A stretch of 64,000 bases of DNA from Candidatus Zixiibacteriota bacterium (GTDB lineage: Bacteria > Zixibacteria > MSB-5A5 > UBA10806). Numbering within the stretch: position 1 is the first letter of the stretch; each line of letters begins with the position of its first letter. The stretch lies in NCBI GenBank assembly GCA_020348065.1, contig CP070742.1:1765721-1829720 (forward strand), given 5' to 3'. The position numbers were made by a program, and so were the translations under genes. Below are positions 9,073 to 18,161 of the stretch, piece by piece. The notes under the pieces were generated by a model that worked only from the letters and a program-made list of their open reading frames with translations, did no database searches and was not told the DNA's origin.

Positions 9073-9834
9073 ATGAAAGTTGCTGTATTGGTCAAACAAA
9101 CTCCTCAACTTTCCGAGGTAACTATGAGCGGCGATGGCCCGAAATGGCCCGGGGGCGCCGATGTTGTTAATCCTTTTGACGAATACGCGGTCGAGGAAGC
9201 TATTAGGTTCAAGGAAAATTACGGCGCTACTGCGGTTGCCGTTACATACGGCGGCGCTGACGTTGTCTCCGCCTTAAGAGATGTTCTGGCTCTGGGCATA
9301 GATGAGGCCGTGCATATAGAATCGGATTCATATTCCGCCACCGATCCTCAGAATACTGCCCGGGTCCTTGCCGCCTGTATCAAGAAATTGGGCGATGTCG
9401 ATCTGGTTTTAACCGGCAAACAAGCTTGCGATGACGATTCCGCCATGGTAGCTTTCGCGGTAGCAGCCAACCTGGATTGGCCGCAGATAGGATTCGTGAA
9501 GAAGTTTGATAAAGTCGATGATTCGAAAATTACGGCCTGGAGAACGACAGATTCGGGATACGATGTGGTAGAGACTCCATTTCCCGCTGTCTGCTCGGTT
9601 GTAAAGGAGATCAACGAGCCCCGACTGCCATCCCTGAAAGGAAAAATGAAAGCCAGAAAAGCGGAAATAAAGAAGTTTTCGTTGGCCGATTTGGATATCG
9701 AACATGACAGAACAACCGAGATTAAAAATATCCAGACTCCCCCCGAACGATCGCAGGGTGAAATTCTCCAAGGCGAATCCGATGAGGTAGTCGATAAATT
9801 AATTGAAAAACTAAAAGCGGATCAGCTTATTTAA
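9073..9834 (+). CDS. etfB: Electron transfer flavoprotein beta-subunit-like protein (EtfB/FixA family)
   Basis: 253 aa starting MKVAVLVKQTPQ, with VNPFDEYAVEEAIR and VAVTYGG, typical of ETF beta. No etfA is adjacent. Confidence 0.75.
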   Translation: MKVAVLVKQTPQLSEVTMSGDGPKWPGGADVVNPFDEYAVEEAIRFKENYGATAVAVTYGGADVVSALRDVLALGIDEAVHIESDSYSATDPQNTARVLAACIKKLGDVDLVLTGKQACDDDSAMVAFAVAANLDWPQIGFVKKFDKVDDSKITAWRTTDSGYDVVETPFPAVCSVVKEINEPRLPSLKGKMKARKAEIKKFSLADLDIEHDRTTEIKNIQTPPERSQGEILQGESDEVVDKLIEKLKADQLI

Positions 9835-9860: not shown

Positions 9861-9888
9861 AAAACGGCTCCGTATTGGGCCGTTTTTT
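9861..9888 (+). terminator. Rho-independent terminator after etfB
   Basis: AAAACGGC-(10 nt loop)-GCCGTTTTTT: a GC stem with flanking A/T run ending in six T. Confidence 0.6.
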
Positions 9889-9941
9889 GTAATATGCTGT
9901 CTATCAAGGGATTACAATTTCAAATTATTTCATTTTTTATG

Positions 9942-9969
9942 TTGCGAAAGCCCACATTAATAATATATT
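9942..9969 (+). promoter_or_regulatory. Candidate sigma-70-type promoter of the giant regulator gene
   Basis: TTGCGA-N16-TATATT, about 28 nt upstream of the ATG at 9997. Confidence 0.35.
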
Positions 9970-9996
9970 TATGTTGTAGAAAAAAATAACACAATC

Positions 9997-12900
9997 ATGA
10001 ATAATCTGGTCGGCAAAAGATACAAGATTCTCTCCGGGCTGGGATCCGGATCTACGGGGGATGTATATCTCGCCATTGATAGTAGAAGCGAGGATAAGAT
10101 ATGTCTGAAAATTCTGAGGTCGGGCACCAAGGAATTTGAGGAGAATTTTATTCGTGAATTTGAAATTCTCTCGCGCCTGAATCATCCCGGCCTGATACCG
10201 GTTCATGATTTCGGGATCGATCCCGAATATGGCCCTTATTTTTCGATGGAATATGCGAGTGGCGGAGATCTGGGAGAATTGAAAGCGGTTACGCCCCGGG
10301 AATTCTTTTCGATATCGTCGTCAATTTGTCGGGCGCTGGAATATATACATAATCAGGGCCTTGTCCACGGAGATATTAAGCCGACCAATATTCTAATCGA
10401 TTCGAGCAAAAACTACAGGTTGGTGGATTTCGGTTTGTCGTTTATATCCGGAGATACGCCGATTTCATCACCGGGCAGCGCGGCTTTTATCTCTCCCGAA
10501 ATTATACGTAGAAACGCCATGACCACTCGATCGGATATTTATTCTCTGGGTCTTCTCCTATATGAACTGATTTTTGGAAAACCGTTTTACGAGGGGGGCG
10601 CCGGCGAAATTATCTCGAAGAAATTGTCCGGTGTTTTTCAATTGCCCGAAGTTCCGGAAGGATTTGGGGGAAAACGATTAAAAGATCTGCTAAGAAAAAT
10701 GATTGATTCCGATCCCCATAACCGCTTTGAATCCGCTGGCGCCGTTTTGGATGAGATAGAGGACATTTTCAAAACCTATGAGGATTTTGAAGAATCAAAG
10801 AGGTTTGCGATAGAAAAATCTAAATTCGTCGGTAGAAACGAGGAATTGGAATGGCTTTCCAGAGGCCTGGTAATATCAGAAGGCGAACATCACAACTTCT
10901 TTTTTATAGGAGGTGAACCCGGTGTAGGAAAGAGCCGTTTGATGGACGATTTTCGGATAAGGGCGCAGATTCAAGGATTTCGATTTTTTAAATCTTATTG
11001 CAGGGAAAAAGATCTCAAACCGCTTTCCCCAATAATCAGTCTATTAAATTATATCTTCATCGAGCTTGATCCCGACATGGAGATTTTTGCGGATTACGGA
11101 CCGGATTTAAAACGGCTTTTCCCCGAAAAATTCGGAGAAATTACACCCGAAAAATATGAAATGAGTGAAGCTGAAGTCGCCGCCGGCCGCCGTCGGATGT
11201 TTGATAATTTAACATTATATCTGAACCATATTTCCCGTAAGGAAAAACTGGCGGTATTGGTTGAGGATTTCCATTGGGCCGACAATGAAACCCGGGAATT
11301 CATCAGGTTTTTTAAATACTATCCTGCTTTCCGGGGGACGTTGATTTTTATATGCTCCGGTCAAACGGAAACAGATATGGAAGTTCCGGATTTTCTGACC
11401 GATGATAAATCATCATTTCGGATTCTCCAACCGGTTGATAAAAAAGATATGTCCGAATTTATAAACGGCATCCTGGGCGGAGTCGAACTTCCGGACGAAT
11501 TTTATGACCGTTTGTTCGACGAGACCGGCGGTAATTTCCTTTATACCGAGGAGATAATAAAGACCTTATCGTCCGAAGGCCAGTTTGAGCGAGATCGCGG
11601 CAAATGGGTTTTAAATTCGGGATGGGAAGAAAAGATCACCGTACCCGAAGGAATAAAATCGCTGCTGGTCAAAAAACTGGAACGATTGGAATTAAGGGAA
11701 AAAGAAATTGTCGAGTTAGCGGCGGTATTGGGAGAATCGTTTATGGCTGGAGAAATCGAAGATCTTCTTGAGGACTATTCTATCCAGCGGTATGTGGATA
11801 ATCTGGTGAGGAACGGCATCTTCGAAAAATCGGAAATCGGTCGCCGGGAAAGGATTTATTTTACCAACGGTCAACTGGAAAAATTGATTTACGGTTCGAT
11901 ATCTCAGGAGAAGCTGAAAAAGCTTCATCAAAAAATAGCCGGATATTATTCCGGGAAAGGGGCAAGTCCGGAGTTTTTGGGCCGCCATTTCGCGCTGGCG
12001 GGAATTTATGAAAAGGGATTCACCTATAATTTTCAATCCGCCGTTGCCGCGGAAAAAGTTTTTTCATTCAAACAGGCGTTCCGATTTTACCAGTCTGCCG
12101 GGGATTGTGCCGGGTATCTTCCGGACAACCGATTGAATAACCTCAGGGGTTTTCAATCGCTTCTGGGACGCGGCAAAGCCATGAATTTTCTATCACCTGC
12201 AGATGCGACAGATTCGCTTCTCAACGCTTTCAGTTTGGCCGAGGCGAAATTCGGTGTCGGCGCGGAGCTGGCCGAAGCCGGTCTGATCCTGGGTCAGAAT
12301 CTGCTGAATACCGGCGAAAACGAGAAAGCGAAGGAAACCTTTCGAAAAACGCTATCGGCGGCGAAAGTATCGGGGGATAGGAGATTTGAAGGCGAAGCTC
12401 AAATCGGTTTGGGCTTTACCGCCGATAAAATCGGCGATTTGAAAGAAGCCGAAAATTGCTATCTGAAGGCTCTGGACGTTTTTGCCGATATCGATTTACC
12501 CGAAGGTTCGTGTAAAGTATTGAATTATCTCGGTATAATTCGAAAAAGACAGGGAGATCTTACCGGCGCGGAGGATTTCTATCGCAGATCGCTCGATATC
12601 TGCCTGGATAAAGGATTTTTGTGGTCCGCCATGAATTTATACGGGAACATCGGAAATCTTTATGCCTCAAAAGGTGATTATAGAAAAGCGCAGCTAAATT
12701 ATTCCAGATCCCTTGAAATTTCAAAGGAGATATCCGACCGTCGTATAGAAAGCATAGTTCTGTTGAATATCGGACACTCCCTGAACGAGATCGGAGACCT
12801 GTATAAAGCCGAGGCAATATTTTTTGAGGCTATCGATAAATTCAAGACTCTTGGAGATAAGGGATCGGAGGCAATCGCGTTGAATAATCTCGGATTTCTG

Positions 12901-15180
12901 AATTACCGGAAAGGACAGATATCCGATTCGATCAAATTTTATTCTGAGGGTCTTGAGCTGGCCGATGAGATCTCACGTCCTCGAATAAAGCTGGCGAACC
13001 TTATCGGGCTCGCGGAAGTTCACGCCGCCGTCGCCGATTTCGAAAATGCCGGGAAGCTGGCCGTTCAGGCTGTTGAATTGGCCGAGGAAATTGACGACAA
13101 TGAACAGCTGGCGACGGCGCTGCCTATTCTTGCCATGGTCAATGACAGCCTGCTTGATACGAAGGGAGTTTTGAAATCAGTCAGGAAATTCCTAAAGCTC
13201 AAGCCGGAGATAGGAAAACCGCGTCAAAGAATAAAAGCATATCTTCTGGCTCAAAAATATAAGAATGATCTAATGGTTGATATCGGTCCTGTTGAAGCCG
13301 AGATAAAAAAAATTTCCGGTAAAAATCCGGAAGTCTACCCGGTAATTATCGCCTTTAACGCGCAGAATTTCCTGGAATCCGATTCTCTATCCAATCCTGA
13401 AATCTGGCTGGCGCGAATTGACGAAGCTCTGGAAAAAGCCAACGATTTCTATCAGTTTCGCGAAAAAATAAAACTAATGGCGTTGAAACTTGATCTTCTG
13501 CGGTTGATAAGGGATAGCGTCGAAGCGGGACGTCAGGAAGAAAAACTTGTTAAAGAGATTGCCCGAGCAACCGGGGGGCTGGATGATAGCCTCATCGATA
13601 ATTTGAAAAAATACCTTGGTATTCATATAGATGGTGACGAACAGGGAGAATATCTTATGAACAAAGTCAACCGGAACGAACGGCTTGCGGTTCTGCTTAG
13701 AATCGCACATACCATAAACTCGATCAGGGAATCCGAACCTCTGTTAAACAAAATACTCGATCTGGCTCTGGAGACGCTCGAAGGAGAGCGCGGTTTTATT
13801 ATGCTTTATTCCAATGATTCTCTGGAGCCGGTCGTAGCCAGGAATATCGCGCGGGAGGATATTCTGGGAGAGACGACCATATCGCAATCGAGCGCCCTTG
13901 AAGTAGCCCGGCTGGGAAAACCGATTCTGTTAAGCGGGGCCGATGACGACATCTCCGCCCGCCAATCGGTCGCCGATTTCCGAATTTCCTCGTTACTCTG
14001 CGTACCTCTGGCGGTGAAGGGAAAGGTACATGGCATCGTATATGTGGACAGCCGTTCCGGAACCATTTTCTCGGATGACGATCTCGATTTTCTGGTCAGT
14101 TTCGCCGACCTGGCCGCCATCGCGTTCGAAAACGCCAGAATGGCCGAGCAACTCAAGGATAAAAACATATATCTTCAACAACAGGTGGAGTCTACTCTGG
14201 GATTTGGCTCCATAGTAGGGCGGTCATCACCTATGCAGCGGGTTTTCCGAATGGCCGAATCGGTGGCCAATACCGATGTCACGGTCGTCCTGACGGGCGA
14301 TTCCGGTACGGGCAAAGAGATTCTCGCCCGGGCCATCCATCTCGCGAGCCCCAGAAAGAACGCGAAATTCGTCCCGGTCGACTGCGGTGCCCTGACGGAA
14401 ACCCTTCTGGAATCGGAGCTCTTCGGCCACGTCAAGGGCTCCTTTACCGGCGCCACCGCCGATAGAGCCGGGCTTTTCGAGGTTGCCCAGGGCGGAACCA
14501 TATTCCTCGATGAAATCACCAATACCGGCAAAAACTTCCAGGTTAAGCTCTTGAGAGTTTTGCAGGAAAATGAAATCCGCCGGGTGGGGGAAAGCAAATC
14601 CCGAAAAATTGACGTCCGCGTTATAACCGCGACCAATAAACCGCTTGAATCCGAGGTCGAATCGGGCGATTTCAGGGAGGACCTGTACTACAGGTTAAAC
14701 GTTGTGAATATCTTATTACCTTCCCTGCGCGAGAGGAATGAGGATATCCCGATACTGGCCGCTTACTTTCTGGAAAAGATCTGCAAAAAAATGAACTTGC
14801 CCGTCAAAATATTTTCATCCGAGGCGCTGGATTTTCTTCTGCGGTATTCCTGGCCGGGCAACGTCAGGCAGCTTGAAAACGTCTGCGAGAGGATGGTGGT
14901 TTTTACCAGGGGTGAACTGGTCGATATCGATATGCTGCCGCCGGAAATCAAAACTTTCAAACAATCGCCCCCCGCTATAACGACGGAAACGAAAATCCCG
15001 AAGACCAGGGCGGAATTGAAAGCCGAGAAGGCCCGGCTGGATAGACTTTTTATAGTCGGCCTGCTCGAAAAAAGCGAAGGCAATGTCATGCAGGCCGCCA
15101 GGCTGTCCGGAATGGATCGATCGCAGATTCATCACATGATGAGCAAATTCGGGATCAGCAGCGCCGATTTTAAGGGATGA
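9997..15180 (+). CDS. Giant multidomain regulator: Ser/Thr protein kinase, STAND/AAA ATPase, TPR repeats, GAF domain, sigma-54 interaction domain and Fis-type HTH
   Basis: 1727 aa. Kinase motifs are GLGSGSTGDVY, HGDIKPTNIL, DFGLS and SPE. The STAND ATPase has Walker A GGEPGVGKS (aa 305-313) and Walker B LAVLVEDFHW. Residues about 600-1100 are TPR-like. A GAF-like segment spans about aa 1220-1385. The EBP core (aa about 1395-1640) has VVLTGDSGTGKE, ESELFGHVKGSFTGA (GAFTGA variant) and the arginine finger region. The C-terminus ends MQAARLSGMDRSQIHHMMSKFGI (HTH_8). Confidence 0.85.
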   Translation: MNNLVGKRYKILSGLGSGSTGDVYLAIDSRSEDKICLKILRSGTKEFEENFIREFEILSRLNHPGLIPVHDFGIDPEYGPYFSMEYASGGDLGELKAVTPREFFSISSSICRALEYIHNQGLVHGDIKPTNILIDSSKNYRLVDFGLSFISGDTPISSPGSAAFISPEIIRRNAMTTRSDIYSLGLLLYELIFGKPFYEGGAGEIISKKLSGVFQLPEVPEGFGGKRLKDLLRKMIDSDPHNRFESAGAVLDEIEDIFKTYEDFEESKRFAIEKSKFVGRNEELEWLSRGLVISEGEHHNFFFIGGEPGVGKSRLMDDFRIRAQIQGFRFFKSYCREKDLKPLSPIISLLNYIFIELDPDMEIFADYGPDLKRLFPEKFGEITPEKYEMSEAEVAAGRRRMFDNLTLYLNHISRKEKLAVLVEDFHWADNETREFIRFFKYYPAFRGTLIFICSGQTETDMEVPDFLTDDKSSFRILQPVDKKDMSEFINGILGGVELPDEFYDRLFDETGGNFLYTEEIIKTLSSEGQFERDRGKWVLNSGWEEKITVPEGIKSLLVKKLERLELREKEIVELAAVLGESFMAGEIEDLLEDYSIQRYVDNLVRNGIFEKSEIGRRERIYFTNGQLEKLIYGSISQEKLKKLHQKIAGYYSGKGASPEFLGRHFALAGIYEKGFTYNFQSAVAAEKVFSFKQAFRFYQSAGDCAGYLPDNRLNNLRGFQSLLGRGKAMNFLSPADATDSLLNAFSLAEAKFGVGAELAEAGLILGQNLLNTGENEKAKETFRKTLSAAKVSGDRRFEGEAQIGLGFTADKIGDLKEAENCYLKALDVFADIDLPEGSCKVLNYLGIIRKRQGDLTGAEDFYRRSLDICLDKGFLWSAMNLYGNIGNLYASKGDYRKAQLNYSRSLEISKEISDRRIESIVLLNIGHSLNEIGDLYKAEAIFFEAIDKFKTLGDKGSEAIALNNLGFLNYRKGQISDSIKFYSEGLELADEISRPRIKLANLIGLAEVHAAVADFENAGKLAVQAVELAEEIDDNEQLATALPILAMVNDSLLDTKGVLKSVRKFLKLKPEIGKPRQRIKAYLLAQKYKNDLMVDIGPVEAEIKKISGKNPEVYPVIIAFNAQNFLESDSLSNPEIWLARIDEALEKANDFYQFREKIKLMALKLDLLRLIRDSVEAGRQEEKLVKEIARATGGLDDSLIDNLKKYLGIHIDGDEQGEYLMNKVNRNERLAVLLRIAHTINSIRESEPLLNKILDLALETLEGERGFIMLYSNDSLEPVVARNIAREDILGETTISQSSALEVARLGKPILLSGADDDISARQSVADFRISSLLCVPLAVKGKVHGIVYVDSRSGTIFSDDDLDFLVSFADLAAIAFENARMAEQLKDKNIYLQQQVESTLGFGSIVGRSSPMQRVFRMAESVANTDVTVVLTGDSGTGKEILARAIHLASPRKNAKFVPVDCGALTETLLESELFGHVKGSFTGATADRAGLFEVAQGGTIFLDEITNTGKNFQVKLLRVLQENEIRRVGESKSRKIDVRVITATNKPLESEVESGDFREDLYYRLNVVNILLPSLRERNEDIPILAAYFLEKICKKMNLPVKIFSSEALDFLLRYSWPGNVRQLENVCERMVVFTRGELVDIDMLPPEIKTFKQSPPAITTETKIPKTRAELKAEKARLDRLFIVGLLEKSEGNVMQAARLSGMDRSQIHHMMSKFGISSADFKG

Positions 15181-15274
15181 ATCTCTCAGGACGGCGAATA
15201 GAAACATATTGCAATAGCAAAAAGGTTGTATTAACTTATTAAGTTAAGTAGTCTAATTGTAAACGGGAGGATTT

Positions 15275-16027
15275 ATGTCCGGCCATTCCAAATGGTCAAC
15301 TATAAAAAGAAAAAAAGGAAAGCTTGATGCCCAGCGGGGAAAGATATTTACCAAACATATACGGGAGATAACGGTCGCGGCGCGAGAGGGCGGAGGCGAT
15401 CCCGATATGAATCCCAGGCTTAGAACGGCCGTGAATGCCGCCAAAGCGGATAACATGCCGGCGGACAATATCAAGCGCGCCATTCAAAAAGGAACCGGTG
15501 AATTGGAAGGGGTCAAATACGAATCGACCAATTACGAGGGATACGGCCCGGGCGGCGTGGCGGTCCTGGTCGAGGTTTTTACGGACAATAAAAACCGCAC
15601 CGTCGCCGATGTCCGGCACGTTTTTTCCAAGCATAACGGTTCTCTGGGCGAAGTCGGTTGCGTGGGATGGATGTTTAATCGCAGGGGATACATCGTGGTA
15701 GATAAAAATAAAATCGGCGAGGATGAAATGATCGAGAAAGCCCTCGAAGCGGGGGCGGAGGATGTTCAATCGTCCGATGATGTCTATGAAATATATACCG
15801 AATTCTCCGAACTCGAAAATGTCAGATCGGCCCTGGAATCGGCCGGAATAGAAATGATCTCCGCCGAACCCGCCATGATACCCCAGAACACAATAAAACT
15901 CGAAGGGAAACAGGCCGAGCAGATGCTAAAACTCTATGAAGGATTGGAAGATCTCGATGATGTCGCTCATATCTACGCTAATTTTGATATCGACGAATCT
16001 ATTATGGAGGAGATGACGGAGAAATAG
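15275..16027 (+). CDS. yebC: YebC/PmpR family DNA-binding regulator
   Basis: [28 protein letters not shown]-terminus; GGGAGGA RBS. Confidence 0.9.
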
Positions 16028-16507
16028 ATGGCTACGGTCGTTCTGGGCATTGATCCGGGTCTCCGGGTAACGGGATACGCGCTGCTTTCGTGTAATGAAA
16101 GCTCCGTAGAGCTTGTGGAAGCCGGAACTCTGAAAACTTCCGATGGCGATAACCTTGAAAACAAGCTCAAGACTCTATATGATGGTCTTGAGGATGTTAT
16201 CTCGGAATTCCAGCCTGACGCTGTTTCGGTGGAGCGATTATACTCGCACTACAGGCATCCTCAAACTGCCGTTGTAATGGGGCACGCCAGGGGGATTATC
16301 TACCTCTGCGCCGCGAATCACAAACTTCCTTTGAACAGCTACGCGTCTACCAGAATCAAAAAAGCTCTAACCGGTAATGGAAGGGCGTCGAAACTTCAGA
16401 TGCAGAGAGCGGTGAAAAGTTATTTTAAGATGAAAGATCTCCCTAAATCCCCCGATATTGCAGATGCCATAGCGGCAGCGTTATGCCATATAGAGGCTGC
16501 GAAGTGA
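16028..16507 (+). CDS. ruvC: Holliday junction resolvase RuvC
   Basis: VLGIDPGLRVTGYAL N-terminus with the catalytic Asp. Confidence 0.9.
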   Translation: MATVVLGIDPGLRVTGYALLSCNESSVELVEAGTLKTSDGDNLENKLKTLYDGLEDVISEFQPDAVSVERLYSHYRHPQTAVVMGHARGIIYLCAANHKLPLNSYASTRIKKALTGNGRASKLQMQRAVKSYFKMKDLPKSPDIADAIAAALCHIEAAK

Positions 16508-17142
16508 TTTCTAAAATAAACGGAAAACTCGAACATATCGATGGATCGTCGGCCACGGTCGGTGTGGGCGGTATCTATTATGAAATTATGCTGCCGTCGG
16601 CGCTGGCAGAATCGTTGAAGGAAAAATCGCATAACGGGAGCGATATCTCCTTTCATATCCTCGATTATATCGAGGGCGGCCAGGTCGGAAACCAGTATCC
16701 CCGTATGGTCGGTTTCGCCGACGCAGTCGACAAGGATTTTTTCAGGTTATATACCAGCGTCCCCGGGCTCGGAATAAAAAAGGCGCTAAAATCGTTGATT
16801 ATACCGATCAGCGAGATTTCCCGGGCGATCGAAACCGAGGAAACATCGGTTCTTAAAAAATTGCCGGGAATCGGGGGAAGGCTGGCGGAAAAAATAGTGG
16901 CCCACCTGAAAGGAAAAACCACCCGATTCGCCCTGGCGAAAGAGAGCAAGCCCCTGGCCAAACCGGAGATAAAGCCCGACTATGCTGAAGAGGTAATGGC
17001 CGTATTACTGCAGCTTCAATATAAACGAACCGAAGCTCAGATGATGCTTGACCGGGCGCTGAATACCGGAAAACGTTTTAAATCCTCCGAGGAACTGCTT
17101 CAGCAGATATTTAGACAATCCTCAACGGATACAGTTAGATGA
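16504..17142 (+). CDS. ruvA: Holliday junction helicase subunit RuvA
   Basis: A GTG at 16504 (GTGA overlap with ruvC) gives MISKINGKLEHID...VGVGGIYYEI, the RuvA consensus start. The track's 16483 start lies inside ruvC. Confidence 0.85.
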   Translation: MISKINGKLEHIDGSSATVGVGGIYYEIMLPSALAESLKEKSHNGSDISFHILDYIEGGQVGNQYPRMVGFADAVDKDFFRLYTSVPGLGIKKALKSLIIPISEISRAIETEETSVLKKLPGIGGRLAEKIVAHLKGKTTRFALAKESKPLAKPEIKPDYAEEVMAVLLQLQYKRTEAQMMLDRALNTGKRFKSSEELLQQIFRQSSTDTVR

Positions 17143-18161
17143 GAGAACGCATAGTCACGCCGGATAAGTATTCGGAGGAGGACGAAAGGCAGATTGTCAG
17201 CCTGCGTCCCGAGAAAATAGACGAATATATCGGCCAGGGCAAAATAGTTAAAAAACTGAAAGTCTCCATTAACGCCTCCTTACAACGAAAAGAGCCTCAT
17301 GAACATATGCTGTTATACGGCCCTCCGGGGCTGGGAAAAACCACCCTGGCCCATATCCTGGCCCGAGAGATGGGTACCAGGATAATAGTATCCTCGGGTC
17401 CCTCGTTACAAAGGACTGGCGATCTAATGGGTATACTAACCAATCTTGAGGATGGGGATATACTTCTTATTGACGAAGTCCACAGACTCGCCCCCTCGGT
17501 AGAGGAGTTCATATATCCTGCCATGGAGGATTTCAAGGTCGATTTCGTCGTGGATAAGGGGGCTTTCGCCCGGGTAATTAACGTTCCCCTTAAAAAATTT
17601 ACCTTGGTGGGCGCTACCACCCGCGCTGGTCTTTTAACCGCGCCTCTCAGGGACAGGTTCGGCATCGTCCATCATGTCGATTTCTACCCCTTCGAGGAAT
17701 TGGCCGACATAGTGCGCAGATCGGCCGGTATACTGGATGTCAAAATAGATGAAGAAGCGGCATCAGTTATTGCTCAGCGGAGCCGCGGTACGCCCCGCGT
17801 CGCCAACAGGCTGCTCAGGCGGGTTAGGGATTATTGCCAGGTAAACGGTATCGAACGTATCGATAAGCAGTCGGTTCTGGACTCGCTGAAAATGGAGGGA
17901 ATCGATTCGGCCGGCCTCGACGATCTTGATAGAAGATTGTTAACCACAATGGTCGATTATTACAAGGGCGGTCCGGTCGGAATCGAATCGATCGCCGCTA
18001 CTCTGAATGAAGAAGTCGATACGCTGGTAGAAATGATGGAGCCGTTTCTTTTGAAAATAGGTTTCATCAAACGTACCCGCAGGGGAAGGATTGTCGGCGA
18101 CGCCGCCCTCAAACACCTGAATCTGCCCCGTATCAAAGGCTCCCAGCAGGAGTTGCTATGA
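17139..18161 (+). CDS. ruvB: Holliday junction helicase RuvB
   Basis: Walker A LLYGPPGLGKTTLA plus the sensor and arginine-finger motifs. Confidence 0.9.
   Translation: MRERIVTPDKYSEEDERQIVSLRPEKIDEYIGQGKIVKKLKVSINASLQRKEPHEHMLLYGPPGLGKTTLAHILAREMGTRIIVSSGPSLQRTGDLMGILTNLEDGDILLIDEVHRLAPSVEEFIYPAMEDFKVDFVVDKGAFARVINVPLKKFTLVGATTRAGLLTAPLRDRFGIVHHVDFYPFEELADIVRRSAGILDVKIDEEAASVIAQRSRGTPRVANRLLRRVRDYCQVNGIERIDKQSVLDSLKMEGIDSAGLDDLDRRLLTTMVDYYKGGPVGIESIAATLNEEVDTLVEMMEPFLLKIGFIKRTRRGRIVGDAALKHLNLPRIKGSQQELL

Follow-up and report, generated by a model that had tools for sequence, protein, structure and literature searches.

The regulator and its modules

We have analysed a 64,000-nucleotide stretch of the genome of a Candidatus Zixiibacteriota bacterium (contig CP070742.1, forward-strand positions 1,765,721 to 1,829,720), the whole of which we call the window, and in it one gene that encodes a protein of 1727 amino acids (aa), which we call the regulator. 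An earlier reading made from the letters alone (the sequence-only reading) had described this protein as one polypeptide that fuses six modules, and our analysis bears this out: the open reading frame (ORF) is uninterrupted, every module scores above its Pfam cut-off, and the modules follow one another in the order kinase, STAND, TPR, GAF, sigma-54 activator, helix-turn-helix (HTH). The regulator is a true signalling protein in a single chain, encoded by a Zixibacteria genome; its plan is that of a STAND switch flanked by two effectors, and we hold the identities of its modules to be close to certain. An NCBI protein, P0001, is 100% identical to it and is deposited under the automatic name 'MAG: sigma 54-interacting transcriptional regulator [Candidatus Zixiibacteriota bacterium]', where MAG stands for metagenome-assembled genome. 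The gene and its modules are as follows.

9997..15180, + strand: regulator ORF, 1727 aa and a stop; ATG start, translation without an internal stop
10021..10800, + strand: Hanks-type Ser/Thr kinase, non-RD, aa 9-268 (Pkinase match, PknB alignment, AlphaFold2 (AF2) model and Foldseek)
10822..11871, + strand: STAND nucleotide-binding oligomerisation domain (NOD), aa 276-625, made up of a P-loop nucleotide-binding domain (NBD), a helical domain (HD) and a winged-helix-like part (WHD) (AAA_16 match, AF2, Foldseek)
11872..13569, + strand: arm and TPR-like sensor solenoid, aa 626-1191 (TPR matches, AF2)
13717..14151, + strand: GAF domain, aa 1241-1385 (GAF match, AF2, Foldseek)
14212..14970, + strand: sigma-54 interaction AAA+ core and lid, aa 1406-1658 (Sigma54_activat and AAA_lid_14 matches, NifA/ZraR alignment)
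15034..15156, + strand: Fis-type HTH, aa ~1680-1720 (HTH_8 match, NifA/ZraR alignment)

The kinase is complete, as had been claimed. Its Pkinase match (PF00069, aa 9-245) reaches 156.4 bits against a Pfam cut-off of 31.7 (1.2e-45), and it aligns with PknB of Mycobacterium tuberculosis at 1.4e-33. The motifs GSGSTG (16-21), K38, E54, HGDIKPTN (124-131), DFG (144-146) and SPE (166-168) are all present; K38, E54, D126, N131, DFG and SPE stand in register with PknB, and so do D180 and R243, the alpha-F Asp and the alpha-H/I Arg. In 13 diverse members of the family and in 7-8 orthologues these catalytic residues are invariant or almost so, and the modelled kinase finds PknB and PknA in Foldseek. 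All catalytic residues are intact, with HGD in place of HRD. Residues 124-126 lack the Arg that would make this an RD kinase, and because nearly all relatives likewise have HGD, HND, HCD or HLD at this position we assign the kinase to the non-RD class. Such kinases are usually independent of activation-loop phosphorylation.

The second module was called 'AfsR/MalT-like' in the sequence-only reading. Here the likeness to MalT stands, in that the domain is of the MalT-PknK (AAA_16) type, while the likeness to AfsR does not, since AfsR has an NB-ARC type domain. The AAA_16 match (aa 276-439) scores 78.4 bits against a cut-off of 32.6 (1.2e-21). The motifs of a STAND ATPase can be read off directly as FVGR (277-280), Walker A GEPGVGKS (306-313), Walker B LVED (421-424) and, in the helical domain, a conserved ETGGNF (509-514). 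The first three are invariant or nearly so in the same sets of diverse members and orthologues; G306, G309, G311 and K312 of Walker A are invariant in all three alignments, and D424 of Walker B is invariant among the Zixibacteria orthologues and present in at least 90% of the diverse family set.

The long TPR array that follows is seen both in Pfam, with matches to TPR_12 (1.7e-30), TPR_1, TPR_2 and TPR_MalT (6.5e-12) over approximately aa 810-1050, and in an AF2 model of aa 1-1200, built with seven orthologues at a mean predicted local distance difference test score (pLDDT) of 81.7. This model contains the kinase, a five-stranded P-loop domain, a helical domain, two winged-helix-like beta-hairpins (530-539 and 609-622) and 28 repeat helices (aa 637-1191), the sensor having a pLDDT mostly of 80-95. 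Since 28 helices are modelled, the solenoid would comprise about 14 hairpins and would span the stretch that has no Pfam match. The AF2 models also leave low-confidence linkers at aa 263-275 and ~1192-1240. The closest PDB sequences to the TPR region are the LGN/Pins TPRs, and a ladder of invariant Asn residues runs through it. In Foldseek the best PDB match to the model is 6MFV, the STAND protein PH0952 with its TPR sensor (E = 7e-14 over 825 columns), followed by PknB/PknA and the LGN/Pins TPRs. As modelled, the NBD-HD-WHD core, arm and repeat sensor satisfy the layout of STAND proteins, at low template-modelling scores (TM-scores).

The GAF domain (aa 1247-1376, 55.7 bits, 9.8e-15), which had also been claimed, is followed in the AF2 model by a helix of some 40 residues (about aa 1360-1400) that runs into the AAA+ core. 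In enhancer-binding proteins (EBPs) an N-terminal GAF domain usually holds the AAA+ ring back, with a role for the linker helix in Nlh2, NifA and NorR. The Foldseek neighbours of the modelled GAF domain are the GAF domains of the Aquifex EBPs Nlh1/Nlh2 together with those of cyclic-nucleotide, PtsP and DosS types, and since these are generic neighbours of the fold we assign no ligand. Among the Zixibacteria orthologues GAF is the most conserved module, at 69-97% identity, with the EBP core and then the TPR region in the next places; variation is greatest in the arm (aa 481-800) and in the repeats at the end of the array (aa 1061-1240).

The sigma-54 activator with its GSFTGA variant and its Fis-type HTH likewise holds. 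Sigma54_activat (PF00158, aa 1406-1572) scores 228.9 bits against a cut-off of 20.2 (3.8e-68) and AAA_lid_14 (aa 1578-1658) 96 bits (1.1e-27). The motifs are Walker A GDSGTGKE (1434-1441), GSFTGA (1481-1486), Walker B FLDE (1503-1506), RRVG (1528-1531) and WPGNVRQLEN (1619-1628), and in alignments to NifA (3e-79) and ZraR (1.5e-77) the elements GxxGTGKE, FLDEI, RVG and PGNVRxLEN are kept. The loop that makes the sigma-54 contact in such proteins is predicted to do so here, being intact as GSFTGA; the same variant occurs in LevR, a validated activator, and sigma-54 dependence is lost together with disruption of the GAFTGA motif (PMC3162934). Orthologues below ~60% identity have GAFTGA rather than GSFTGA, and the regulator and all Zixibacteria orthologues keep GSFTGA, GAFTGA or GAFTSA along with Walker A/B, RRVG and sensor-II. 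Some other members, a subclade of the kinase-EBP family (P0039, P0044, P0057 and the one at locus L012), have a degenerate loop, reading KTATG, KVATG or PSVATD, in which the essential Phe is gone and the rest of the AAA+ core is kept. To judge from these sequences, such members may lack the usual sigma-54 contact. The HTH_8 match (~aa 1689-1716, C-terminal part scanned alone) is marginal at 23.1 bits against a cut-off of 22 (6.1e-5); it is backed by the NifA and ZraR alignments, which run through the HTH of both proteins, and by precomputed PF02954 annotations of several orthologues. Besides HTH_8, the C-terminal 78 aa have weak matches to other HTH families and none to GerE, the LuxR-type HTH.

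How does such a chain compare with systems already known? MalT of Escherichia coli and the LAL proteins share with the regulator an AAA_16-type NOD, an arm, a helical-repeat sensor (here with its TPR_MalT match) and a DNA-binding effector at the C-terminus. MalT differs in that it uses a LuxR-type HTH and sigma-70 polymerase, whereas the regulator carries a GAF-AAA+-HTH_8 sigma-54 activator as well as an N-terminal kinase. PknK of M. tuberculosis combines an N-terminal Hanks kinase with a MalT-like STAND NTPase and a helical-repeat C-terminal region. Its likeness to the regulator is one of shared Pfam families, and it is without GAF, sigma-54 AAA+ and HTH_8. PH0952 of Pyrococcus horikoshii (6MFV) has the same NBD-HD-WHD-arm-TPR series with an ArsR-like N-terminal effector and neither kinase nor EBP; at 13% identity and TM-scores of 0.18 and 0.31, its overall conformation differs from that modelled here. 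The last ~500 residues of the regulator (GAF, linker helix, AAA+, HTH) are colinear with GAF-type EBPs such as NifA, NorR, FhlA and Nlh1/Nlh2. However, NifA/NorR-type EBPs begin at the GAF domain and the regulator has 1240 residues ahead of it. The NCBIfam models for NifA and NorR cover aa 1229-1662 and aa 1231-1721, and since both score below their equivalog cut-offs (TIGR01817 nifA, 370.4 against 528.85; NF003451 NorR, 357 against 476) the regulator is neither NifA nor NorR.

Inheritance, distribution and related architectures

A chain of this length invites the suspicion of a chimera or a missed frameshift, which the sequence-only reading had itself raised. Against both stand the identical NCBI protein and the more than 30 independent assemblies with full-length orthologues of the same length, mostly in the same gene neighbourhood. 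Besides the identical protein, 32 clusters at 40-88% identity have the same architecture and lengths of 1717-1758 aa, except for three shorter ones (1577-1651 aa); the orthologues come from NCBI, ENA, JGI and Logan assemblies and include one on a complete 3.83-Mb chromosome (CP070813.1). Along this orthologue series all domains diverge in step. The pairwise distance matrices of the five domains (kinase, NOD, TPR, GAF and EBP) are correlated, with r = 0.65-0.96, and this holds in the distant subset too; the test is rough, but its outcome agrees with a fusion that is old and has been passed on whole. On the sequences compared, the whole chain is one that evolved as a unit in a conserved chromosomal position. 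We also observed a peak in GC content, 0.57 at window positions 14000-14499, over the sigma-54 AAA+ core, against 0.42-0.50 elsewhere in the gene. This would reflect conservation and not a join, as no other part of the gene resembles other activators as closely as the AAA+ core does.

Two proteins, P0034 and P0035, end after the TPR region and occupy the same syntenic slot. Both are broken copies of the full-length gene, which rules them out as naturally split kinase-STAND-TPR proteins. In locus L089 there is a frame switch at nucleotides (nt) 9153-9177 and the GAF-EBP part continues in another frame (P0035), and in locus L090 there is a 32-nt tandem duplication at ~9100-9170, again with the GAF-EBP part continuing in another frame (P0034); gene callers split each damaged copy (L089 at ~9153-9207; L090) into two ORFs. 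The contig names of L089 are presumably those of a long-read assembler. Although these two truncated proteins could be taken to favour it, there is next to no probability that the long ORF of the regulator is an assembly artefact, whether through the joining of a kinase-STAND gene to a NifA-like one or through a frameshift that went unseen, since both of them are themselves damaged and since 33 clusters at 40-100% identity share the architecture with all domains in step.

The sequence-only reading had further held that a fusion of this kind was undescribed. For the literature this stands: our full-text searches found no description of a kinase-STAND-EBP fusion, and the text of a 2011 census of EBP architectures mentions no kinase type. 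Papers on the myxobacterial kinome and the Sorangium genome are said to mention kinase-sigma-54 fusions; the Sorangium/Polyangiaceae loci from our scan of GTDB genomes are kinases without an EBP part. For the databases the claim fails. Both PF00069 and PF00158 are found in 69 of the 120 best database clusters, the exact protein is deposited, and the fusion being already common in public databases, its novelty is removed while its annotation stands. The phyla named for clusters with Pkinase and Sigma54_activat are Zixibacteria, Planctomycetota and Eisenbacteria. Three more genes with all the modules came from the scan of GTDB species genomes: one of a Terriglobia MAG (L009), which counts 1833 codons from stop to stop and 1827 aa from its first ATG, one of a Terriglobales MAG (L012) and one of Candidatus Udaeobacter (L022). 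These make up 3 of 80 loci among the matches listed, which are mostly ordinary HGD-type kinases and include none from Zixibacteria. Overall the fusion occurs in Zixibacteria, Planctomycetota, Eisenbacteria, Acidobacteriota and Verrucomicrobiota, a phyletic spread to be read as a lower bound. By sequence the architecture is neither rare nor new to databases, and the regulator is an uncharacterised form of EBPs and of MalT/PknK-type STAND proteins.

Two groups of relatives bear on how the parts are combined. In P0066 and P0110, which carry HisKA/HATPase, and in P0070 and P0109, which carry GGDEF, the series kinase(HGD)-NOD-arm-TPR-GAF is colinear with that of the regulator at 25-41% identity per domain, and only the output after GAF differs. 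Because the same chassis carries histidine-kinase or GGDEF outputs, the C-terminal AAA+/HTH can be regarded as an exchangeable output. These four proteins presumably resemble the cyanobacterial HstK-type dual kinases. The second group, P0073-P0120, is an abundant separate family of ~1360-1430 aa in which a sigma-54-type AAA+ core and HTH_8 are likewise joined to an AAA_16 NOD and TPRs. Here the order is EBP core-HTH_8-NOD-TPR, the EBP lies at the N-terminus where the kinase sits in the regulator, kinase and GAF are missing, and the loop reads GAFTDA. With the EBP N-terminal in one family and C-terminal in the other, the coupling of STAND to EBP has arisen in two topologies.

Putative promoter region, neighbouring genes and candidate targets

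The features that surround the regulator gene are the following.

9073..9834: etfB-like gene with no etfA beside it; its best NCBIfam match is ETF beta at 168 bits, below the cut-off
9942..9969, + strand: putative sigma-70-type promoter-like site, TTGCGA-16 nt-TATATT (consensus scan and direct reading)
9972..9991, + strand: leader/operator-like motif, TGTTGTAGA-N5-7-(T/C)AACA, between the -10 box and the ATG
15275..18161: yebC-ruvC-ruvA-ruvB, downstream of the regulator and followed by queA-ispD(F)

Upstream of the etfB-like gene lies fabG-acpP-fabF-rnc, and the flanks are as first described, an orphan etfB on one side and yebC-ruvCAB on the other. A hairpin with a T-run (9861-9889) stands 3' of etfB and ahead of the promoter-like site, whose position is kept across orthologous loci. 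The leader motif holds the longest invariant run, 11 columns, in an alignment of five orthologous upstream regions. It recurs at L001 7976, L005 5971, L006 5969, L007 5963 and L008 5969, with variants in L002 and L003, is kept behind a different upstream gene as well, and has a single occurrence in the 64-kb window. It is partly palindromic, overlaps the gene's own putative promoter and leader, and might serve as an operator for autoregulation or fold into a small hairpin of the 5' leader. No Shine-Dalgarno sequence precedes the start codon of the regulator (AACACAATCATG, window 9985-9999). In yebC there is a strong one (GGGAGG within GGGAGGATTTATG, window 15262-15277) and a promoter-like site of its own, TTGCAA...TATTAA, at 15210-15240. 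An Rfam search of the window gave no match.

The upstream order fab operon-rnc-etfB is shared by the window and L005, L006, L008, L089 and L090; the etfB-regulator pair is syntenic in six related loci, in each case behind fab operon-rnc. The genes yebC-ruvCAB follow in the window, L001 and L005. This housekeeping neighbourhood remains syntenic in orthologues down to ~42-50% identity. In more distant orthologues (41-56% identity; L002, L003/L004, L006, L007, L008 and L089) a conserved trio of genes replaces yebC-ruvCAB. It encodes a CarboxypepD_reg protein with a type IX secretion system (T9SS) sorting tail, an LplA/LipB-like protein and a FlgD_ig (or BNR-like) protein with a T9SS tail. We considered the trio as a direct sigma-54 target and rejected it: a strong sigma-70 promoter, in which an A-tract is followed by TTGCAA/TTGACA and TATAAT, stands before its first gene, there is no -24/-12 element, and the trio is absent from that position in the window.

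Beyond one weak intragenic GG-N10-GC match in the window, two sites in related loci deserve mention. The one good -24/-12 match beside a family member is in locus L012, where the sigma-54-type promoter TGGTAT-N5-TTGCA (9882-9897) lies ~55 nt upstream of a 72-aa ORF (9952-10170). This ORF combines a signal peptide with a strong ribosome-binding site, and after it comes a 253-aa ORF (10320-11081) for a truncated EBP-like AAA+ protein. We take this promoter as weak support for a sigma-54 role, because the regulator of L012 is one of those with a degenerate loop (KVATGV). In L003, at 3497 on the minus strand, a -24/-12-like TGGCAT-N5-AATGCT lies 37 nt upstream of a gene with a 3D domain (cell-wall related), 4.5 kb from the regulator; it gives a weak hint that sigma-54 promoters exist in Zixibacteria.

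A structured element of ~175 nt is found 3' of the regulator gene in L002 (13186-13363), L007 (11200-11376) and L008 (11189-11363), and not in the window. A long stem (CGGGTTCCG...CGGAACCCG) closes the element, which further contains a hairpin on the 5' side, an internal stem (AAGAAACCCG/CGGGTTTCTT) and a hairpin on the 3' side; compensatory changes are seen in 16 of its 37 predicted pairs. Rfam has no match for it and a covariance model made from it gives no hit in the window; its shape recalls a 6S-like RNA.

Mechanism and alternatives

What might a STAND switch do between a kinase and a sigma-54 activator? In their resting form STAND proteins are ADP-bound, closed and autoinhibited by the sensor; an inducer permits exchange for ATP, opening and multimerisation, and the effectors, which may sit at either end, are active when clustered. 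Bacterial members include MalT and Ser/Thr kinases such as PknK (PMC6468293, PMC4381067), the latter named explicitly as the kinase member of bacterial STANDs (PMC4381067). EBPs for their part need to assemble a hexameric AAA+ ring in order to be active (PMC2941729). The sequence-only reading had suggested that the fusion couples nucleotide-dependent oligomerisation and phosphorylation to sigma-54 transcription, and this is a reasonable reading. More specifically, we propose, with a confidence a little better than evenly balanced, that the STAND switch would multimerise on binding an inducer and so assemble the sigma-54 activator ring and at the same time cluster the kinase. The logic is expected to be that of MalT, in which inducer and ATP lead to multimerisation and multimerisation to activation (PMC4381067, PMC6468293).

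The order of events can be set out as well, if more tentatively, since here our confidence falls somewhat short of even. At rest the NOD would be held closed with ADP bound, and the TPR sensor would inhibit it in the way known from MalT and PH0952. An inducer bound in the TPR groove would allow ATP to replace ADP in the NOD; the LGN-like type of the TPRs and the invariant Asn ladder suggest that this inducer is probably a peptide or protein. The open NOD would then multimerise and so raise the local concentration of the GAF-AAA+ modules. GAF would act as a second gate, and once it is relieved the AAA+ domains could close into a hexameric ring, which would bind enhancer DNA through the HTH and remodel sigma-54 RNA polymerase. 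The same multimerisation would cluster the kinases, which, being non-RD, should need no activation-loop phosphorylation, and these would act on the regulator itself or on further substrates, which would give either a second, phosphorylation output or a feedback signal.

Several points weigh against this proposal. Our searches found no biochemical data on any member of the family. STAND multimers are not known to be hexamers, and their geometry may not suit an EBP ring. The AF2 model has a predicted template-modelling score (pTM) of 0.53, which makes its inter-domain geometry uncertain, and the sequence does not constrain the direction of control between kinase and EBP. The degenerate GAFTGA loop of some members means that sigma-54 contact is not universal in the family. 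No RpoN box was found in a six-frame translation of the 64-kb window or in 90 related loci, no convincing -24/-12 promoter was seen in the window or beside the Zixibacteria orthologues, the gene that follows the distant orthologues has a sigma-70 promoter, and no target was found in the window.

In the main rival the kinase is an input and not an output. By autophosphorylation, in cis or in trans, of the linkers, of GAF or of the AAA+ core, it would control ring assembly, much as phosphorylation of the receiver does in NtrC-type activators, and the STAND-TPR part would only time the kinase. The full conservation of the catalytic residues fits such a role, as does the retention of the kinase in the relatives with histidine-kinase or GGDEF outputs, which is expected of a regulatory part of the chassis, and the low-confidence linkers described above could carry phospho-sites. 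However, no conserved Ser/Thr acceptor site was identified, and P0073-P0120 join an EBP to STAND-TPR without any kinase, which means that the coupling of STAND to EBP does not need one. We consider this alternative unlikely as a full account of the regulator; it is nevertheless compatible with multimerisation by the STAND switch.

A second possibility is that the C-terminal module is no longer linked to sigma-54 at all and works as a sigma-70-type regulator or repressor, as in TyrR, DhaR and HupR, with the leader motif as its operator. The lack of rpoN and of sigma-54 promoters in the window would be explained in this way, as would the partly palindromic motif over the gene's own promoter and the loss of the GAFTGA Phe in some distant members. 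Yet the regulator and its Zixibacteria orthologues retain the GAFTGA-type loop, Walker A/B, RRVG and sensor-II, LevR works with the GSFTGA variant, and one protein can both repress its own gene and activate through sigma-54, so that we regard this explanation as improbable. We give even less credence to an anti-phage STAND (Avs-like) defence protein with kinase and AAA+ as effectors, which is very improbable: TPR-sensor STANDs are frequent in defence and PADLOC models match the kinase and AAA+ parts, but these matches are generic (PD-T4-6 kinases, RtcR/PspF AAA+), no Avs model is among the 25 listed, the gene sits in a syntenic housekeeping neighbourhood (fab-rnc-etfB; yebC-ruvCAB-queA-ispDF) and in no variable island, and its DNA-binding HTH is typical of transcription activators.

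Every part of the regulator is a known domain, shuffling of signalling domains is common in bacteria and the architecture is already in databases, all of which tempers its interest. EBPs are textbook cases of activators that a receiver, GAF, PAS or V4R domain switches on; STAND NTPases have their eukaryotic cousins in the apoptosome and NLR proteins; and non-RD kinases are tied to innate-immune receptors in eukaryotes. It is conceivable, if doubtful, that the family represents the first NLR-like STAND switch that directly assembles a sigma-54 AAA+ ring, in place of two-component phosphorylation, while firing a non-RD kinase, and that it serves Zixibacteria as a syntenic master regulator which integrates protein or peptide signals through its TPRs with small-molecule signals through GAF. 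For specialists the coupling of STAND to sigma-54 would be worth an experiment, though it would not astonish them. To our knowledge Zixibacteria are known only from metagenome-assembled genomes, and for this phylum the regulator is a candidate global regulator. The relatives with histidine-kinase and GGDEF outputs on the same chassis offer a natural experiment in output swapping. More generally, if our proposal is true, scaffolded multimerisation would be a third way of controlling ring assembly, and Ser/Thr phosphorylation and sigma-54 transcription would be linked within one molecule.

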